9,709 nucleotides of DNA from the IMG/VR virus record IMGVR_UViG_2529292908_000016; one strand, 5' to 3'. This DNA comes from a virus. Taxonomy: Duplodnaviria; Heunggongvirae; Uroviricota; Caudoviricetes. Shown piece by piece: positions 2,427 through 9,709 of the stretch; within the stretch, counting starts at the first letter, position 1; each line of letters starts with the position of its first letter. The notes beneath the pieces were generated by a model. That model saw only the letters and a program-made list of their open reading frames with translations, was not told where the DNA came from and searched no databases. The position numbers and the translations under genes were made by a program.

Positions 2427-2529
2427 CCAGACACAAAACACAAAAAGAAACCAAAGTATCAAAAATCACTTGCCACGCCTTGATACCTTAGTTACCATAA
2501 AACAAAGTTCGTAACTGAGGTATCATCTC
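2427..2529 (+). promoter_or_regulatory. Intergenic regulatory region with operator-like motif and candidate sigma70 promoter for the downstream HTH gene
   Basis: CCAAAGTATCAA at 2451..2463 is a near-identical copy of the site at 1712..1723. Inverted half-sites GTATCAA (2457..2463) and TTGATAC (2480..2486). Candidate promoter TTGCCA (2470..2475), 17-bp spacer, TACCAT (2493..2498). GAGG Shine-Dalgarno at 2517..2520. Confidence 0.35.
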
Positions 2530-3033
2530 ATGATCAATAAAGCTACAACTCTTGACTGTCTCGAAGAACTGAAAAACCTCGGCAGCCTCATTACACTAAT
2601 AGCAAAAGCAACACCTGATGCTACGCTCTCTAGCGATATAGAGTCATGCGCAGGACTGGCATGGGATATGACAAATAGCATATCCAGAAAGCTATCGTCA
2701 GCAATGCTTTTACAGAACAAAAATTCTGCAATCAACAACCGTCTTCGCACCCAACGCGAAGCCTGCGGCTTAACAACCGCCGAACTCGCCAGGCTGCTCG
2801 ATCTCGATGAAGAAATTATCATCCAGTGGGAGAGCGGAGAGTATGAACCAACTATCAGTATGCTTATCCCACTGGCAAATATTCTTGGCTGCGATCCGAT
2901 GTGGCTGTTAACTGGTGAGGTTACTCCTCCGGAGCAACCAAAAAGTGAGGAGCAGCAACACCATGACGCATCTCAACAAGTTTGCCCCTTATCTCGCGAA
3001 GCTCTTCTGCGGAAGAACCAATACCAATGGTGA
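2530..3033 (+). CDS. XRE-family helix-turn-helix DNA-binding protein (167 aa) with an unrecognised N-terminal region of about 65 aa
   Basis: HTH_XRE signature in the C-terminal half: INNRLRTQREACGLTTAELARLLDLDEEIIIQWESGEYEPTISMLIPLANILGCDPMWLLTGE. Same strand and immediately downstream of the CI-like repressor. Confidence 0.7.
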   Translation: MINKATTLDCLEELKNLGSLITLIAKATPDATLSSDIESCAGLAWDMTNSISRKLSSAMLLQNKNSAINNRLRTQREACGLTTAELARLLDLDEEIIIQWESGEYEPTISMLIPLANILGCDPMWLLTGEVTPPEQPKSEEQQHHDASQQVCPLSREALLRKNQYQW

Positions 3034-3161
3034 CATAATCGCCGCTTCGCCCCTCAAGGTACATGCGAACATTTTTATCAATCATTGCGGAAACAGTCTC
3101 AATATGAAAACACTTCTGAGACTCGCTATATAGCAGAACATATAAGTCAGCTGAGGAAGCC

Positions 3162-3527
3162 ATGAAAAAGTTCGAAAACATAACTGTTCTCCATGTTGAT
3201 GACTTTGATTATACAAACCCGGAACTTCTCCCGGAGGTTGTAAAGGCAATAGATGTTGCCGATATAGTGATTAGAGAAAAGAGAATTGTCAAAAACAGGC
3301 TCGCATGCACTTCAGGAGCAATGACAGAAACAACCTCACAGCAAGATAATTACGAAGGCATTTGTCTGGAGCCTGATTCATTTGCGGTAAATGTTTATCA
3401 TTTATTGCATGCAACACAGGTATTACATATGTCCAGTAATCACGAAACGAAAACACTCGGCAGCGAAATTCTGAGTTTTGCATGTGAGTATACAAAAGCT
3501 GCTGCCGAAAAAGAATTAGCGCAATAA
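3162..3527 (+). CDS. Hypothetical protein (121 aa)
   Basis: ORF with GAGGAAG Shine-Dalgarno just upstream of ATG at 3162; no recognisable motif. Followed by an inverted repeat CGCAATAA...TTATTGCG and a T-rich tract. Confidence 0.55.
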   Translation: MKKFENITVLHVDDFDYTNPELLPEVVKAIDVADIVIREKRIVKNRLACTSGAMTETTSQQDNYEGICLEPDSFAVNVYHLLHATQVLHMSSNHETKTLGSEILSFACEYTKAAAEKELAQ

Positions 3528-3565
3528 CAACAAATATGCCCTGAACGTTTATTGCGGTTTTATCG
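3520..3565 (+). terminator. Possible weak terminator or attenuator: 8-bp inverted repeat CGCAATAA/TTATTGCG with a large loop, followed by GTTTTAT
   Basis: Stem arms at 3520..3527 and 3549..3556; the 21-nt loop is long and the U-tract is interrupted, so termination efficiency is doubtful. Confidence 0.2.
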
Positions 3566-3605
3566 CCGGGGATTGTTACAACCTTAATCCACAGGAGGCT
3601 TTATT

Positions 3606-3719
3606 GTGACTTTTATAAAGAATATGGCATCACACAAGACCGCCTGCCTTATTGCACAATACGGTGAAAATCACATGCATATTGCCTGCTTATTTCTGCG
3701 TAAAGCATACGGGAGATAA
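3606..3719 (+). CDS. Hypothetical small protein (37 aa, GTG start)
   Basis: Canonical AGGAGG (3593..3598) 7 nt upstream of GTG at 3606; stop TAA at 3717..3719 lies 2 nt before the next gene's ATG. Below the ORF-track size cutoff. Peptide: MTFIKNMASHKTACLIAQYGENHMHIACLFLRKAYGR. Confidence 0.25.
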   Translation: MTFIKNMASHKTACLIAQYGENHMHIACLFLRKAYGR

Positions 3720-3721
3720 TA

Positions 3722-3922
3722 ATGCATCAGAAAACAGCAGAACACGAACAAACCAGAGTATTGCTGACCATCAAAAACGGGAAAGTAATATTCATTCGCC
3801 ATGTTCATGACGATGAACTTGTAGGAACTCTTTCAACATTCCTGTTTATTGCAGAAAAGGCAGGATATGACGTTATTGCACCAGCAGATGAAGATGAAGA
3901 TGAAGATGAAGATGAGGAATAA
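3722..3922 (+). CDS. Hypothetical small protein (66 aa) with a poly-acidic C-terminal tail (DEDEDEDEDEE)
   Basis: GGGAGA Shine-Dalgarno 5 nt before ATG at 3722. The C-terminal tail is encoded by a (GATGAA)4-GATGAG tandem repeat. The next gene starts 5 nt after the stop. Confidence 0.6.
   Translation: MHQKTAEHEQTRVLLTIKNGKVIFIRHVHDDELVGTLSTFLFIAEKAGYDVIAPADEDEDEDEDEE
3887..3916 (+). repeat. Tandem hexanucleotide repeat (GATGAA)4 plus GATGAG inside a CDS
   Basis: Read directly at 3887..3916; in frame, encoding alternating Asp-Glu. It also supplies the GAGGAA Shine-Dalgarno for the downstream gene. Confidence 0.9.
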
Positions 3923-3927
3923 ATATC

Positions 3928-4509
3928 ATGCAATACGATGAATTCCAGGCTGAAGCAACAGCCAATGGTATACGAACTGGCAGTATGACGATTGATTATC
4001 ACGACGCCATACGTCGTCTGGATGCCGGAGAATTCGATACTCCTAATGTGCGAGGTTTACGTATCCTTCAGTGTCTGGCGCAAGCCGACGAAGCAGGATT
4101 ACTGGGTAAACTTCCGGTTGAGATGAAGGTTGCTCAGTGGCGATGGTTGTATGTGACGACATTCATCAACGAAGAAGAAGACAAGAACGGCACAATTGAT
4201 ATCCTGAATGAACACGGAACAACTGAACACGCCGTGGTATATAACGGGATGTATGGGTTTATGACGATATATCCCGGCCCCATTCGATTTGCCTTACAAC
4301 AGTATATTGAATGGAATTTAATTCAAAAATACGGCGAAGCTGAAGGAATGGGAAGAGCGCTGTTTCTTTATCAGAAAATGCTCACTACTTCCCCTGATAA
4401 AGGTTTCATTCTTTCAGATATGGGGCGAGAAGGGCTTGAAATCCTTCTGGATGAAATTATTAACGAAATGAATACTCATGGCATGCAATCCGAAACAGAT
4501 ATTAAGTAA
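3928..4509 (+). CDS. Hypothetical protein (193 aa), function unknown
   Basis: GAGGAA Shine-Dalgarno 8 nt upstream of ATG at 3928; tightly spaced after the acidic-tail gene; no motif I can recognise. Confidence 0.7.
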   Translation: MQYDEFQAEATANGIRTGSMTIDYHDAIRRLDAGEFDTPNVRGLRILQCLAQADEAGLLGKLPVEMKVAQWRWLYVTTFINEEEDKNGTIDILNEHGTTEHAVVYNGMYGFMTIYPGPIRFALQQYIEWNLIQKYGEAEGMGRALFLYQKMLTTSPDKGFILSDMGREGLEILLDEIINEMNTHGMQSETDIK

Positions 4510-4519
4510 AAGGGACCAC

Positions 4520-4768
4520 ATGACCGTTATCGAGTATATCCAGGAAAATCCAGATTGCAGTAGAGAAGATATATCCCTCGCACTTGGAAGAAGCGCAACT
4601 TCTATCAGTAATGAATTATCACGGTTATTGTGGAATGGGTTAATAGTACGAACTGGAGAAAAAAACAAAACGATTCTGTACTGCGTAAACAATCTGCCGT
4701 TTGGATACAGCAATCCCCTAAGTGTTATGTTCAACCAGTTACTTAAACAGGTAAGAAATGGCAACTGA
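4520..4768 (+). CDS. Small putative winged-helix DNA-binding protein (82 aa)
   Basis: AAGGGA 5 nt upstream of ATG at 4520. Segment REDISLALGRSATSISNELSRLLWNGLIVRTGEKNKTILY is compatible with helix-turn-helix plus a beta-hairpin wing. The 3' end overlaps the next gene start by 11 nt. Confidence 0.55.
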   Translation: MTVIEYIQENPDCSREDISLALGRSATSISNELSRLLWNGLIVRTGEKNKTILYCVNNLPFGYSNPLSVMFNQLLKQVRNGN

Positions 4769-5075
4769 CTCACAACTAACCATAGAAACGGCCCTGAATG
4801 TCGGCCTGGCGCTCCTTGGTTATTTTTACATCGTGTTCTGCAGCGGACGGTGGCTGTCGCTGTTGTTCCTGAAAAAATGGAATAAACGCCGTAAGCAGGA
4901 TGAACGCCAGAAGGCAATGAATGCGTTTTCCGAAGCCTTCGGAATTGACGGCATGGAACCAGGGGATCCAGCTCGCGCAATCAGCAGAGGGGGTGTAGTA
5001 ATCCTTGTATATCGGAGTGAAGAGAAAAATGACGATCACAAAACAACGAGTAGAAAAAATCATATATCGCCATGA
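4758..5075 (+). CDS. Small membrane protein (105 aa) with one predicted transmembrane helix followed by a basic stretch
   Basis: AGGT Shine-Dalgarno before ATG at 4758. Hydrophobic segment ALNVGLALLGYFYIVFCSGRWLSLLFL followed by KKWNKRRKQDERQK. Overlaps the next predicted gene by 47 nt. Confidence 0.5.
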   Translation: MATDSQLTIETALNVGLALLGYFYIVFCSGRWLSLLFLKKWNKRRKQDERQKAMNAFSEAFGIDGMEPGDPARAISRGGVVILVYRSEEKNDDHKTTSRKNHISP

Positions 5076-5343
5076 AATGGGACTGAACAGCGATGTCACT
5101 GCCGAAGAGGTTTATGACCTGGCTGTACTGGCGCTGAATTTATCAAATATCGCAAACCTGAAGCGATACGAGCTTGATATGGATGGTTGCGACTCGTGCG
5201 GTCAGGATTGTGGCGCAGATATGACTGAAGATCCTGATGGTGATTATGTCCTGTTTGATGACGTGGTTAAGTTGTTTGAATTTGATACAACCACTCAAAA
5301 GTTAGAAATCCCGGCAAAGGAGGCTGCCAGTGAGCAAGATTGA
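5029..5343 (+). CDS. Hypothetical acidic protein (104 aa)
   Basis: First ATG of the track ORF 5005..5343, with GGAG/AAGAGA upstream. Cys-rich acidic patch DMDGCDSCGQDCGADMTEDPDGDY. The 3' end overlaps the next gene start by 14 nt. Confidence 0.55.
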   Translation: MTITKQRVEKIIYRHEMGLNSDVTAEEVYDLAVLALNLSNIANLKRYELDMDGCDSCGQDCGADMTEDPDGDYVLFDDVVKLFEFDTTTQKLEIPAKEAASEQD

Positions 5344-5515
5344 CTATCAGGCACTGCGCGAGGCGGCGGAACAGGCAACGCAAGATGAATGGGTAGCATA
5401 TATTTTGCCGGGTCATAACGGCATTTATCCTGCGCGCACGTCTGAGGGTAGGCATTGTGCGGATACTTTATTGACTGGCCTGGCGTCTGTCAGGGGCGGG
5501 AGAGCATCAACATGA
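5330..5515 (+). CDS. Short ORF (61 aa) carrying an Ead/Ea22-like N-terminal module; possibly a gene fragment
   Basis: AAGGAGG plus GTG start; the first ~17 codons (MSKIDYQALREAAEQA) are paralogous to the start of the 6015..6692 gene. Stop overlaps the next ATG (ATGA). Confidence 0.4.
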   Translation: MSKIDYQALREAAEQATQDEWVAYILPGHNGIYPARTSEGRHCADTLLTGLASVRGGRAST

Positions 5516-6018
5516 GCATCAGAACCTACGCAGTGAATTGCAATGACGCATGGCTAAACACCGAAGGTGATGACATCTCCGGCTCATACGTTAAGTACAA
5601 AGACCATCAGGAAGTGGTTGCCGCTCTTGAGGCCAAGTGCGCGGCGCTGGCAGCGGAGAATGCGGGAATAAAGTCTGCAATTCCAGAATCACGGGATATT
5701 GAAGATGACAATGACAATATGGATGACGTATCTCTCGCGGAAGACTTCGGGTTCAATCATGCAATAGAACGGATGAGGAGACAGATACCTGAAACGCCAA
5801 CCACTGATGCTTTCCTGGCTGAAGTCCGGGCGCAGGGGGTGGATGCTGCTATAGAAGCTGCAAAAAATCTGGTGGCCCAAGAATATGAGTATAAGGATTT
5901 CAAAGCGGCGCAGAGTGATTGCTGTATGTACCCTGGTTCAGACCTGGTAGGGAAGGTTGAAATGACTGAGTGGTTAGTTGACTTTGCTGCCCAGCTTCGC
6001 AAAGGAGGCAACCAGTGA
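5512..6018 (+). CDS. Hypothetical protein (168 aa) with an Ala-rich predicted coiled-coil segment
   Basis: GGGAGAG Shine-Dalgarno 7 nt before the first ATG (5512) of track ORF 5455..6018. Segment HQEVVAALEAKCAALAAENAGIKSAIPE. Stop TGA overlaps the GTG start of the next gene (GTGA). Confidence 0.6.
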   Translation: MSIRTYAVNCNDAWLNTEGDDISGSYVKYKDHQEVVAALEAKCAALAAENAGIKSAIPESRDIEDDNDNMDDVSLAEDFGFNHAIERMRRQIPETPTTDAFLAEVRAQGVDAAIEAAKNLVAQEYEYKDFKAAQSDCCMYPGSDLVGKVEMTEWLVDFAAQLRKGGNQ

Positions 6019-6692
6019 GCGAAATTAATTACCAGGCACTGCGTGAGGTGGTGGAACGTGCAATTCCAGCAATGGAACGCCTGTTAATGTTGCCAGTTGA
6101 TGATGATTTGTTAAGTGAACAGGAACTTAAAGATTACGGTGTGGATATTGATGCGCTCAACGCCTTCAAATTTCTGACCGGACCAGAAACCGTGCTGGCA
6201 CTGCTGGATGAGATCAACGCATTAGAGGAAACGCGTATCAACGATGTTTGCCGTATTGCGGAACTAACAAAACAACTGGAGTTGGCAAAATCAAAACTCA
6301 ACGAGCAGCGTGAGTATTACGAAGGTGTTATCTCGGATGGAAGTAAGCGTATTGCTGAACTGGAGAAAAGCGAAGAGCAACTCATTAACGAGCGTGACCA
6401 TGCTGAGTCTGCTTTAGCTGATATGTATTTTGCAGCAACCGGGGATAGGCCTGAGTGGAGTAACTGGTTCGGTTTTTCAGATGCAGTAGATGCCGTAGTT
6501 GACAGAATTGCTGATTTAGAAGCTAAACAGCCATCGCCAGTAGTACCTGAAGGACTGATTAAAGCGGTGCGTTTTTATGAGCAGGTAAAACGTGAGAACC
6601 CGCCAGTCGAAACCGGAGCATGGAAAGACGCTGTTGACTGGGTGCTCAAAGAGGCTTGCCAGGCTGTAAACATTGGCATCAAAGGAGAGTGA
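6015..6692 (+). CDS. Ead/Ea22-like family prophage protein (225 aa), coiled-coil rich
   Basis: AAGGAGG 7 nt before GTG at 6015. N-terminus MSEINYQALREVVERA and the coiled-coil middle (LTKQLELAKSKLNEQREYYEG...ELEKSEEQLINER) match my recollection of the Ea22-like family. This is a recalled family assignment, not a search result. Confidence 0.65.
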   Translation: MSEINYQALREVVERAIPAMERLLMLPVDDDLLSEQELKDYGVDIDALNAFKFLTGPETVLALLDEINALEETRINDVCRIAELTKQLELAKSKLNEQREYYEGVISDGSKRIAELEKSEEQLINERDHAESALADMYFAATGDRPEWSNWFGFSDAVDAVVDRIADLEAKQPSPVVPEGLIKAVRFYEQVKRENPPVETGAWKDAVDWVLKEACQAVNIGIKGE

Positions 6693-6829: not shown

Positions 6830-7621
6830 ATGACCACTTTAACCGACAAAGAACTGATTAAAGAAATCAAAGAGCGTATAGGCAGCCTGGACATCCGAGA
6901 CAATATTGAGCGTCGGGCTTATGAAATTGCTCTGGCATCGCTGGAAGCAGAGGCAGTTATGTTCTGTATATCAGGACAAAATGTAGATTCAGAAGAACAT
7001 GTATCAACCAGCAAAGCGGTTGTTGATGCCTGGGTTGAAGAATGGAATCAGGTTGACAGAAGTCCTGGCGAACCACTGTACAAAACTATGCCACTCTACT
7101 ATCACGCTGCCTTGCCAGCGCCGGTAGTGCCGGAAGAAGCAACTCCGGAAAACGTAGAAATGCTCTCTGGCTATGTTTCCACGTACAAATTAACCGATAG
7201 CGAGCGCGATATTGCTGCCGAAATATGGAACGCCTGCCGCACCGCCATGCTTCAGTCCGGAAACTTTCGGGAAAGCAAGAATTCGTCAACCAATAATTTT
7301 CGGGAAATCCCGGAAGCGTCAACCAGCTCTCCGGTAACTCCGGCTCTTCTGCCTGGTGGTTTCACCATTGAGGAGGCGAAGGAATTACATGAAGACCTGG
7401 TACGCAGCCACATAAGCAAGGCCTTAAGTGGCGAAAAGATGAAAAAGAAAGATCGCGATGCTGATTTGCGCTGGATTCATGGCGTTATAGTTCAGGCAGC
7501 GTGGTTTGTAAAAGCATCACTGGAGCAGAATGCACTATCGGGCAACTCTCCGGTAACTCCGGATGGTTGGATAAGCTGTAGTGAGCGAATGCCGGACGAC
7601 AGGCAGGAGGTGAATCAATGA
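6830..7621 (+). CDS. Hypothetical prophage protein (263 aa) with internal repeats; C-terminus resembles the start of a DUF551-type domain
   Basis: Long ORF in the operon. Contains two exact 17-bp direct repeats encoding SPVTP and a duplicated NFRE motif. Ends with GWISCSERMPDDRQEVNQ, which resembles the W-[IV]-S-x-x-[DE]-R-[LM]-P opening of DUF551 as I recall it, cut short by the stop. Confidence 0.7.
   Translation: MTTLTDKELIKEIKERIGSLDIRDNIERRAYEIALASLEAEAVMFCISGQNVDSEEHVSTSKAVVDAWVEEWNQVDRSPGEPLYKTMPLYYHAALPAPVVPEEATPENVEMLSGYVSTYKLTDSERDIAAEIWNACRTAMLQSGNFRESKNSSTNNFREIPEASTSSPVTPALLPGGFTIEEAKELHEDLVRSHISKALSGEKMKKKDRDADLRWIHGVIVQAAWFVKASLEQNALSGNSPVTPDGWISCSERMPDDRQEVNQ
7327..7343 (+). 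repeat. 17-bp exact direct repeat CTCTCCGGTAACTCCGG, copy 1 (inside CDS)
   Basis: Identical 17-mer found again at 7546..7562; the 219-bp offset keeps both copies in the same reading frame (SPVTP). Confidence 0.9.
7546..7562 (+). repeat. 17-bp exact direct repeat CTCTCCGGTAACTCCGG, copy 2 (inside CDS)
   Basis: See copy 1 at 7327..7343. Confidence 0.9.
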
Positions 7622-7701
7622 GCTGGCCTGATGCAATCGTAACTCTGGGGGTGGTATTCGCAGCAGCGTTTGTTGTGTTCTCGATTTGTCGATGGGGATA
7701 A
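7618..7701 (+). CDS. Small hydrophobic peptide ORF (27 aa): MSWPDAIVTLGVVFAAAFVVFSICRWG
   Basis: Canonical GGAGG (7606..7610) 7 nt before ATG at 7618. The ATG overlaps the upstream gene's stop (ATGA) and its own stop is 4 nt before the next ATG. One predicted transmembrane span. Below the track size cutoff. Confidence 0.4.
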   Translation: MSWPDAIVTLGVVFAAAFVVFSICRWG

Positions 7702-7705
7702 CCAC

Positions 7706-7948
7706 ATGTTCGCTTTGATTCAACGCGGTCAGATATACACGGACAGAGCCGGATACCCCGTGGTGATTACTCGCATCACTGAGCACTCAGTGTTCTTTCG
7801 ACGGATGGACGGACGATCCGGGCGGGTACGCATTGGTGAGTTAAACTGCCTGTTCGAACATATTGACCACCAGGAGTACCGCAAAATTCTCGCGGACACT
7901 GAGCAGGAAAAGCACCTGAAAAAATTACGAGCCATAAAAAGGAAGTAA
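7706..7948 (+). CDS. Small prophage protein (80 aa), possibly DUF4222-like
   Basis: First ATG of track ORF 7670..7948, with GGGGA 7 nt upstream. MFALIQRGQIYTDRAGYPVVITRITEHSVFFRRMDGRSGRVRIGELNCLFEHID resembles small beta-rich prophage proteins found next to xis/int. The family name is from memory and unverified. Confidence 0.55.
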   Translation: MFALIQRGQIYTDRAGYPVVITRITEHSVFFRRMDGRSGRVRIGELNCLFEHIDHQEYRKILADTEQEKHLKKLRAIKRK

Positions 7949-8106: not shown

Positions 8107-8343
8107 ATGGGCAATGTGATTCAACTGGCTCCCAATGAATGGGTTTGTGAAAGCGTTCTTATCGCAATTACCGGGCTCAAACCAGGCACAATTCTTCGGG
8201 CCCGGAAAGAATGCTGGATGGTTGGAAGAGAGTATATTCACGTATCACCAGACGGTAATCCAAAGCCTTCCAGTGAATGTATGTATAACAGAAAAGCAAT
8301 AGATGCCTGGGTCGCCTCAATGAAAAACAAACAACCCAGGTGA
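8107..8343 (+). CDS. xis: Excisionase-like small DNA-binding protein (78 aa)
   Basis: GAGGT Shine-Dalgarno 5 nt before ATG at 8107. Lies immediately upstream of the integrase on the same strand, with size and basic/aromatic composition typical of winged-helix excisionases. The call rests on position and composition, not a verified domain hit. Confidence 0.65.
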   Translation: MGNVIQLAPNEWVCESVLIAITGLKPGTILRARKECWMVGREYIHVSPDGNPKPSSECMYNRKAIDAWVASMKNKQPR

Positions 8344-8398: not shown

Positions 8399-9709
8399 AT
8401 GGATAAAGTCAAATATCCAACAGGCGTCGAAAACCACGGCGGCACATTACGCATCTGGTTTAATTTTAAAGGTAAACGTGTCAGGGAAAATCTTGGTGTC
8501 CCTGACACTGCCAAGAACAGGAAGATCGCCGGGGAACTGCGGACATCAGTATGTTTTGCCATCCGCACAGGAAGCTTTGATTATGCTGCACAGTTCCCTG
8601 ACTCCCCCAACCTTCAGGCTTTTGGGGTAAGTAAAAAAGAAATTACGGTGAAGGAACTTGAAGAAAAGTGGCTGGATCTGAAACGAATGGAAATCTCTGC
8701 AAATGCATTCAATCGCTATGAATCCGTTGCAAGAACGATGGTTCCGAAAATTGGAGGCAGTAGACTGGTGTCATCGGTAACCAAAGAGGAATTGCTGTAT
8801 ATCAGGAAAGATTTGCTGACCGGGTATCAGAATTCAATGAAAAACAAAGCAGCAAAAGGACGGAGCGTTGTTACTGTAAATTATTACATGACGACAATCG
8901 CTGGAATGTTTCAGTTTGCTGCAGATCACGGTTACTTAGAAGCAAATCCCTTCCAGGGAATTAAGCCTCTTAAAAGAGCCAGGGCAGAGCCAGATCCGCT
9001 AACTCGTGACGAATTTATTCGCCTGATAGATGCTTGCCGACATCAGCAGACGAAAAACCTGTGGTCATTGGCTGTGTACACAGGAATGCGTCACGGTGAA
9101 CTGGTCTCCCTGGCCTGGGAAGATATCGATCTGAAGGCAGGAACAATTACCATCAGGCGCAATTATACGAAACTTGGTGAGTTCACTCTACCGAAAACTG
9201 AAGCAAGCACAAACAGGGTTGTGCACCTTATCCAGCCCGCTATCAGTGTCCTGAAAAATCAGGCTGAAATGACAAGACTGGGTAAGCAGTACAACATCAA
9301 GGTGCAACTACGTGAATATGGACGTTCAGTGAACCATGAATGTACTTTCGTGTTTAACCCTCAAGTGGTTAGAAAAAGCGAACAGGTAGGTTTTGTCTAC
9401 AAAGTCGATTCTGTAGGTGACTCATGGGAAACAGCCATTAAGCGTGCAGGGATCAGGCATCGAAAGGCATACCAGTCACGACACACTTATGCGTGCTGGT
9501 CATTATCTGCCGGAGCAAACCCAAGCTTCATTGCCAGCCAGATGGGCCATGCAAGTGCCCAGATGGTATTCAATGTATACGGAGCATGGATGACTGACAG
9601 CAATGCAGAACAGATCGCAATGCTGAATCAGAAGCTGACAGATTATGTCCCAATGATGCCCCATAGTCACCAAAGTGACACCAGAGGCTTATTAAAATCA
9701 GTAAGTTAA
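8399..9709 (+). CDS. int: Tyrosine-type site-specific integrase (436 aa)
   Basis: GGAGG Shine-Dalgarno 5 nt before ATG at 8399. Catalytic-domain hallmarks are present: TGMRHGEL (box I Arg), SRHTYACW (H-x-x-R region) and MGHASAQMVFNVYGAW (catalytic Tyr). The N-terminus YPTGVENHGGTLRIWFNFKGKRVREN looks like an arm-type DNA-binding domain. Stop TAA is the last codon of the window. Confidence 0.9.
   Translation: MDKVKYPTGVENHGGTLRIWFNFKGKRVRENLGVPDTAKNRKIAGELRTSVCFAIRTGSFDYAAQFPDSPNLQAFGVSKKEITVKELEEKWLDLKRMEISANAFNRYESVARTMVPKIGGSRLVSSVTKEELLYIRKDLLTGYQNSMKNKAAKGRSVVTVNYYMTTIAGMFQFAADHGYLEANPFQGIKPLKRARAEPDPLTRDEFIRLIDACRHQQTKNLWSLAVYTGMRHGELVSLAWEDIDLKAGTITIRRNYTKLGEFTLPKTEASTNRVVHLIQPAISVLKNQAEMTRLGKQYNIKVQLREYGRSVNHECTFVFNPQVVRKSEQVGFVYKVDSVGDSWETAIKRAGIRHRKAYQSRHTYACWSLSAGANPSFIASQMGHASAQMVFNVYGAWMTDSNAEQIAMLNQKLTDYVPMMPHSHQSDTRGLLKSVS

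Follow-up and report, generated by a model that had tools for sequence, protein, structure and literature searches.

In phage lambda, N, cIII, kil, gam and the exo-xis genes lie downstream of the leftward promoter PL, and rexAB sits on the cI side, where it is expressed in the lysogen. The small early genes of this PL operon (cIII, kil and the exo-xis genes orf60a, orf63, orf61, orf73 and ea22) fill the stretch between the immunity region and ea22-xis-int under a repressor-controlled leftward promoter. A comparable arrangement, with a putative promoter of this type, is found in the DNA described here, a 9,709-nucleotide (nt) stretch of caudoviral sequence (IMG/VR record IMGVR_UViG_2529292908_000016), which we call the window. 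Our subject is a block of six genes at 3162-5075 (+) of the window. The window itself represents the immunity and early-left arm of a lambdoid prophage of the phiP27-like kind, inserted at yecE in Escherichia coli: positions 3000-5200 show 99.8% identity to E. coli chromosomes with the integrase next to yecE, Escherichia phage PhiR49_2 is 99.2% identical to the window, and homology with mosaic breaks extends to the Shiga toxin (Stx) 2e phage phiP27 and to Stx1a/Stx2a phages integrated at yecE.

On balance, we favour the reading that this block is the promoter-proximal part of a cI-repressed early-left (PL-type) operon, whose early proteins tune the lysis-lysogeny decision or the physiology of the host. 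Transcription of the coupled small genes would start at a promoter-operator just behind cI and run rightward past the Ea22-like genes as far as xis and int. Since the block lies downstream of a putative repressor-controlled promoter, its products would be made within the first minutes of infection or induction, and would not form a lysogen-expressed immunity island. The block would then work as the lambda cIII-kil-exo-xis stretch does; the small early genes of that stretch are reported to shift the balance between lysis and lysogeny (PMC8614690).

The evidence for this operon comes from the region immediately behind cI, which ends at 2426, with the first downstream gene, encoding a DicA/CII-like helix-turn-helix (HTH) regulator, starting at 2530. 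The intergenic sequence (2427-2529) carries the operator-like 12-nt word CCAAAGTATCAA at 2451-2462, and CCAAAGTATCAA recurs in the cro-cI intergenic region (at 1712); a shared word of this length appeared in 4 of 2000 shuffles. It also carries the inverted heptamers GTATCAA (2456) and TTGATAC (2480), a motif with seven copies in the window, four of them in the two short intergenic regions flanking cI. A promoter-like sequence, TTGCCA-17-TACCAT, is found at 2470-2498, between the two inverted heptamers. We read 2450-2500 (+), with its operator-like word, inverted heptamers and promoter-like site, as a putative left operator and promoter (OL/PL); the block begins 630 nt further on than the HTH gene. 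Because this site lies upstream of both the HTH gene and the block, the two probably form a single repressor-controlled early-left operon, and the block would not occupy the rexAB slot.

The initial annotation had assigned the block to the position of rexAB, sieB and kil, just downstream of the repressor. This is half right: there is an accessory stretch downstream of the repressor gene of a lambdoid prophage, but it is not in the rexAB position, as it follows the putative OL/PL. Lambda rexAB and 933W stk resemble the block in lying beside the repressor gene and on the same strand; unlike it, they lie between the repressor gene and OL/PL and share a transcript with cI, an arrangement that, judging by sequence, the block does not share. 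In Phi24B, the tRM terminator splits the cI-side genes from nutL and N, whereas no terminator-like site was found between cI and the block in the window. What the locus does reproduce is the early-left operon of phiP27, where an S24 cI and a DicA-like HTH gene are followed by homologues of L08, L07 and L06, in that order. Adjacency to a repressor gene can count as evidence of defence cargo only for genes on the repressor side of OL/PL.

The comparison with phiP27 (NC_003356) can be extended to the individual products. L08, L07 and L06 have 95.9%, about 50% and 65% amino acid (aa) identity with their counterparts, downstream of the same type of cI, and L10 is also homologous; in contrast, phiP27 lacks the last two genes of the block, which encode a winged HTH (wHTH) protein and a DUF4752 protein, and carries a different antisense gene (L09). 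Among the Stx1a/Stx2a phages integrated at yecE (LC5678xx series), the Stx1 phages share 3342-5032 at 88% nt identity, including the wHTH and DUF4752 genes; the Stx phages have neither the N-terminal half of the first open reading frame (ORF) of the block nor the antisense gene. In both groups the homologues of the block genes are annotated only as hypothetical. The likeness to lambda, on the other hand, does not extend to the proteins. Lambda N, cIII, Kil, Gam, Bet, Exo, Orf60a, Orf61, Orf63, Orf73 and Ea8.5 have no sequence or family relation to any block protein; no block product matches the Pfam or PHROG families of the exo-xis proteins (Orf60a, Orf63, Orf61, Orf73, Ea22, Ea8.5); and the Ea22-like genes are found only to the right of the block. 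Neither N, Red nor Gam is recognisable in the window. The block is real and looks like an ordinary, mosaic stretch of the early operon of phiP27-like phages.

All six genes were present as initially annotated: a 121-aa ORF (3162-3527, +), a 37-aa ORF with a GTG start (3606-3719, +), a 66-aa protein (3722-3922, +), a 193-aa protein (3928-4509, +), the 82-aa wHTH protein (4520-4768, +) and the 105-aa DUF4752 protein (4758-5075, +). Their tight packing also holds, with successive gaps or overlaps of 78, 2, 5, 10 and -11 nt, and a Shine-Dalgarno (SD)-like sequence precedes every start. To assess coding, synonymous and non-synonymous differences between the window and diverged relatives (phiP27, L004; two E. 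coli loci, L010 and L011; and a Stx1 phage, L003) were counted in all three frames. The resulting ratio of non-synonymous to synonymous change (pN/pS) was minimal in the called frame for all six products, with a 68-aa C-terminal core standing for the 121-aa ORF. It was 0.39 for this core, 0.21-0.24 for the 37-aa ORF (17-18 synonymous changes against L004, L010 and L011; 0.32 against L003), 0.45-0.48 for the 66-aa protein, 0.27-0.30 for the 193-aa protein, 0.27 for the wHTH protein (on only 14 differences) and 0.16 for the DUF4752 protein. Two real genes, those of the 37-aa micro-protein and the 82-aa wHTH protein, are omitted from the RefSeq annotation made by PGAP. The AT-richness noted by eye proved real but modest: GC content is 0.420 in the block, 0.458 to its left and 0.474 to its right, and at third codon positions it is 0.27-0.42 in five of the six genes and 0.49 in the DUF4752 gene. 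The block would consist of independently exchangeable modules, and any biochemical role that we give to their products below is one that we infer.

The 121-aa ORF is a homologue of phiP27 L08 and matches phrog_5451 and phrog_4587. Its wide conservation is limited to the C-terminal 68 aa (3321-3527), which have an AGGAG SD of their own before the ATG at 3321. RefSeq calls the 68-aa form at this locus, and PGAP calls the 121-aa form where the ORF is ATGA-coupled to the HTH gene (L011); only the short form is found in Stx phages (66 aa, with its own SD) and Salmonella prophages (61-67 aa, directly after the HTH gene). For the N-terminal 53 codons the relatives are 98% identical, and the pN/pS figure covers the 68-aa core only. 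At the nucleotide level, the region of this ORF shows about 98% identity to L004, L010 and L011 in the N-terminal 159 nt and 93-97% in the remainder, compared with about 77-79% in the flanking genes; this may reflect either a recently spread mosaic segment or an added constraint, such as a promoter for the antisense gene inside it. The core has 35% identity (E 1e-8) to residues 15-60 of a 142-aa DicA-like HTH regulator from phi467-type prophages (L019), and it also matches phrog_4836, a 'CII-like regulator' family. Because of these two matches, the core appears to be a stand-alone copy of the N-terminal, non-DNA-binding domain of DicA-like regulators, and the simplest interpretation is that it modulates a regulator of this type. 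It would most likely act on the DicA/CII-like HTH regulator by protein-protein contact. Direct similarity was detected only to the phi467-type regulator and not to the HTH regulator of the window itself, and a sequence search of the PDB with the 121-aa product gave nothing below E 0.06.

The second module would be the triad of 37-, 66- and 193-aa proteins, a backbone feature of a phage supergroup. The 37-aa product is basic (isoelectric point, pI, 9.6), is preceded by an AGGAGG SD and ends in LRKAYGR. Homologues of 31-37 aa, mostly unannotated and all ending in L(R/K)KAYG(R/K)-TAA, occur in phage loci of E. coli, Salmonella, Klebsiella and Aeromonas (L014 3319-3465, L017 3336-3449, L019 3537-3635, L006 2571-2744 and L005 1556-1711), and in one database protein (P0172) the 37-aa protein is fused in frame to a homologue of the 66-aa protein. 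It matches no Pfam or PHROG family. This micro-protein is real and conserved across four genera.

The 66-aa protein belongs to the phiP27 L07 family (phrog_340). Its AlphaFold2 model is a beta-hairpin with one helix (mean predicted local distance difference test score, pLDDT, 82), followed by a disordered Asp-Glu tail; no structural neighbour of this model was found, and it shows no recognisable DNA-binding antitoxin fold. The acidic tail had been singled out as a feature of the protein. It is encoded by a perfect in-frame (AGATGA)x5 repeat at 3886-3915, is missing in other family members and differs in length between strains; products of 60, 62, 64, 66 and 68 aa are found in other strains and in PhiR49_2, and the repeat is therefore a copy-number-variable coding microsatellite. 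Being a lineage-specific hexanucleotide repeat, the tail is not family-wide, and DNA mimicry was rejected as a family feature. The protein has weak PHROG matches (E 6e-6 and 5e-4) to the C-termini of antirepressors. It proved unrelated to the proteins encoded beside 193-aa homologues (SPFH, Rha, ORF6N and a 140-aa protein) and to the Rha-like protein of the window.

The 193-aa protein, a member of the phiP27 L06 family (phrog_1515), is also acidic; together, the small acidic products of the block (68/121, 66 and 193 aa) span pI 4.4-5.0. Its structure is predicted with confidence (pLDDT 86, predicted template modelling score 0.83), and neither solved nor viral structures include a match to the fold. 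An exhaustive search of 1.8 billion representatives with a profile recovered only 101 clusters, nearly all of them fragments or stand-alone proteins of about 190-230 aa; six longer or atypical matches contained no informative domain fusion, and the one of 973 aa, an immunoglobulin/tail-type repeat protein, is probably spurious. A profile of 46 diverse members matched nothing in Pfam or the PDB, and the 66- and 193-aa products and their family profiles found nothing in the PDB below E 0.06. At the 3' end of the 193-aa gene, at about 4486-4509, there is a mosaic junction where the wHTH/DUF4752 module joins; here the usual C-terminus of the family, of the GMPEAPVTH type (P..P..H), is replaced in the window by GMQSETDIK.

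In E. coli and Klebsiella, a recurrent order is seen: the 37-aa gene, an optional 119-aa gene, the 66-aa family, an optional ParE_like gene with a gene of about 146 aa, the 193-aa family, a Rha/ORF6N protein and, further on, int, which is preceded by xis in E. coli and Salmonella loci. In Salmonella prophages the same succession is seen, but the 193-aa gene is missing; in Aeromonas phage AsXd-1 the 37- and 193-aa genes are both there, and no homologue of the 66-aa gene was detected. Of 5426 complete E. coli genomes, 277-340 contain the 37-66-193 module, with identities of 69-99%. The three genes behave as a backbone of this supergroup, between which cassettes are inserted or deleted. In relatives, the same place can hold other cargo, including SPFH/Band-7, DUF5406 and ParE_like genes. 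The SPFH/Band-7 (HflK/C-like) genes belong to the same early-left operon, adjacent to the 193-aa homologue or close to it, in relatives from Klebsiella and E. coli (L005 3129-3956, L010 4472-5299, L011 4192-5019, L013 5023-5850); the window has none. That SPFH and ParE-like neighbours recur in relatives hints at biology linked to membrane proteases or toxins. One could also imagine the triad as an unrecognised early phage function, for example a complex for host takeover or counter-defence whose target is conserved among enterobacteria, an idea we hold to be rather improbable.

The last two genes would form a third module of mosaic accessory genes common to Stx and P22-like phages. The 82-aa product was correctly described as winged-helix-like, matching phrog_1687 over its full length (E 1.5e-24) and Pfam HTH_24. 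It scores below the Pfam cut-offs for MarR_2 (23.0 bits; cut-off 27) and MarR (14.3 bits; cut-off 24.6), and, with only 82 aa, it lacks the MarR dimerisation helices; we describe it as a MarR-like wHTH protein. A Stx1 phage record annotates it as MarR-family. PGAP leaves the gene unannotated in a near-identical RefSeq genome (L001), and the RefSeq feature lists inspected do not contain it. A longer 96-aa ORF from 4478 was rejected in favour of the 82-aa form, with a pN/pS of 2.9 in the extension. The 105-aa product, proposed to be a single-pass membrane protein, is a member of Pfam DUF4752 (PF15944; 125.8 bits against a cut-off of 27, E 7e-37, model positions 2-84 of 84), also matches phrog_667, and has one hydrophobic segment (residues 12-30; Kyte-Doolittle, 19-residue window, 1.67) followed by the basic KKWNKRRK, in agreement with this proposal; we predict that it resides in the inner membrane. 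DUF4752 was found in 103 phage records, those of Stx phages, P22-like phages and D6 among them. It occurs without the wHTH gene between the TraR-like gene and ea22 in a 933W-type phage (the lambda counterpart of the TraR-like gene is given as Orf73 in PMC9239242) and in the nin region of BTP1, and the wHTH gene occurs without DUF4752 in Salmonella prophages. As each is found apart from the other, they are separate modules, and the suggestion of a DNA-binding and membrane-protein pair typical of exclusion systems does not hold. Sequence searches of the PDB with the 82- and 105-aa products gave nothing below E 0.06, and a search of the available literature for DUF4752, the Pfam accessions, the phiP27 locus tags, the RefSeq protein accessions and PhiR49 returned no relevant paper.

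The block had been put forward as candidate exclusion, defence or anti-defence cargo. Its description as an uncharacterised accessory stretch between the regulators and the Ea22-like genes stands, since it is accessory, AT-richer and mosaic, with alternative cassettes that include ParE-like and SPFH genes; the specific arguments for a defence or exclusion role fail. In PADLOC-DB v2.0.0, which dates from 2023 and does not cover newer systems, no family was matched at E<=1 by the 121-, 37-, 66- and 193-aa proteins or the DUF4752 protein, and the wHTH protein gave generic matches (E 1e-5 or weaker) to the wHTH part of the CARF, CasR and Csa3 models. No match of a block protein in Pfam, NCBIfam or the PDB pointed to defence or anti-defence. 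Across the four resources, then, the remote-homology check yielded nothing of this kind beyond generic wHTH similarity, and this absence, like the reality of the genes, their homologies, their synteny and the mosaic junctions, is directly observed. A defence reading of the block is not supported, and a role as anti-defence or exclusion cargo loses only its specific arguments.

The main rival to an early operon that tunes lysogeny is counter-defence, in which one or more of the small acidic products (68/121, 66 or 193 aa) would inhibit host immunity upon infection, in the manner of Gam and Ral, which are established anti-defence proteins from the lambda PL operon. We consider this improbable, albeit worth keeping in view. 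Small acidic proteins, the mosaic exchange of neighbouring cassettes, and the orphan fold of a 193-aa family restricted to phage and prophage contexts would all suit it; yet no product resembles any known anti-defence protein or fold, the acidic tail that suggested DNA mimicry is a lineage-specific repeat, and the 37/66/193 order, maintained from one genus to another (with all three genes in E. coli and Klebsiella), is more what one expects of a housekeeping early function than of a counter-defence gene that is rapidly swapped. Still less probable is superinfection exclusion or abortive-infection cargo expressed in the lysogen, for example the wHTH protein as regulator and the DUF4752 membrane protein as effector. 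Exclusion proteins of the SieB and Imm type are small membrane proteins, as is DUF4752, which moreover moves like a moron between early-left and nin regions; the block is AT-richer than its flanks and might be reached by read-through, as no terminator separates it from cI. Against this, it lies downstream of the putative OL/PL and not between cI and OL/PL, it has no PADLOC match, the wHTH and DUF4752 genes are not conserved as a pair, and no moron-type promoter-terminator pair was found around 4520-5075. That the 66- and 193-aa genes, only 5 nt apart, form a toxin-antitoxin-like pair, with a labile small upstream partner neutralising the downstream effector, seems to us very unlikely. It is true that a ParE_like toxin gene (PF24732, E 1.6e-17) is overlapped at its start by the 66-aa homologue in ZH063 and in prophages of Klebsiella, which puts the homologue where an antitoxin would be; most loci with the 66-aa family, however, have no ParE-like gene. 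In Klebsiella loci the 66- and 193-aa genes can be up to about 1.6 kb and several genes apart, and each is found without the other (the 193-aa gene in Aeromonas AsXd-1, the 66-aa gene in Salmonella and ZH063), so adjacency is not obligate. In addition, the acidic 193-aa protein shows no match to a toxin family or fold, and the 66-aa model lacks a recognisable antitoxin fold.

Several points also weigh against the early-operon reading that we favour. Position in an early operon is equally typical of anti-defence genes, and a conserved gene order demonstrates linkage, not function. The ParE-like toxin and SPFH genes occupy the same slot in relatives, so the locus accepts conflict-type cargo. Since no terminator follows cI, transcription from the maintenance promoter could continue into the block and express it in a lysogen, and the promoter, the operator and the timing of expression have all been deduced from the DNA alone. 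Finally, four of the six proteins have no functional homologue, and the tuning of lysis-lysogeny and host physiology is a label given by analogy.

Even as an ordinary stretch of an early operon, the block offers three things to retain: the 37-aa micro-protein, which is conserved, the 193-aa family with its orphan fold, which merits a structure or interaction screen, and a small antisense gene at its left border. About 5-6% of complete E. coli genomes carry block genes, as do Stx1/Stx2 phages of clinical relevance. If early-left genes do tune induction or lysogeny, they would have a bearing on the release of Shiga toxin.

The left border is itself mosaic. The first gene of the operon (2530-3033, +) encodes the DicA/CII-like HTH regulator of 167 aa (Pfam HTH_3, E 4e-11; phrog_4739 and phrog_4836). 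Homology to phiP27 L10 ends at 2916, and the tail (2917-3030) has a pN/pS of 1.57 in its own frame; the last 39 or so codons (2917-3033) are an accidental read-through into a swapped-in cassette, that is, a spurious C-terminal extension. On the opposite strand, at 2921-3181 (-), there is a real gene that was overlooked in the initial annotation. It abuts the block, overlaps both the HTH tail and the opening codons of the 121-aa ORF, matches phrog_6104 (E 1.4e-49) and has a pN/pS of 0.27 against L010, with 32 synonymous changes. Its product has 86 aa from the ATG at 3181 (GGAG-N7 SD) or 80 aa from the ATG at 3163; a PDB sequence search with the 86-aa form gave nothing below E 0.06. This cassette is swapped for L09 in phiP27 and absent in STEC309. 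As the sole opposite-strand gene in the operon, it is a better candidate than the block for a moron or for lysogen expression.

In the remainder of the window, a Rha/Roi-like gene (727-1434, -) and a cro-like gene (1431-1658, -) precede the S24-type cI (1770-2426, +). To the right of the block, the operon continues with a 104-aa gene (5029-5343, +; phrog_3126, E 4e-64), which overlaps the DUF4752 gene and is followed by the Ea22-like genes, the whole group spanning 5029-6692 (+). Then come a 263-aa ORF (6830-7621, +), where relatives have DUF551 genes or fragments, an ORF (7670-7948, +) where relatives have a DUF4222 gene, xis (8107-8343, +) and int (8399-9709, +). An Rfam scan found no RNA family within 3162-5075. 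Elsewhere in the window, downstream of the Rha/Roi-like gene, are a C4 antisense RNA (373-460, -; RF01695, 82 bits, E 2e-15) and the Hfq-binding RNA isrK (485-561, -; RF01394, 62 bits), which together constitute an RNA control module of the P1 immI/Gifsy isrK type for an antirepressor in the rightward operon.

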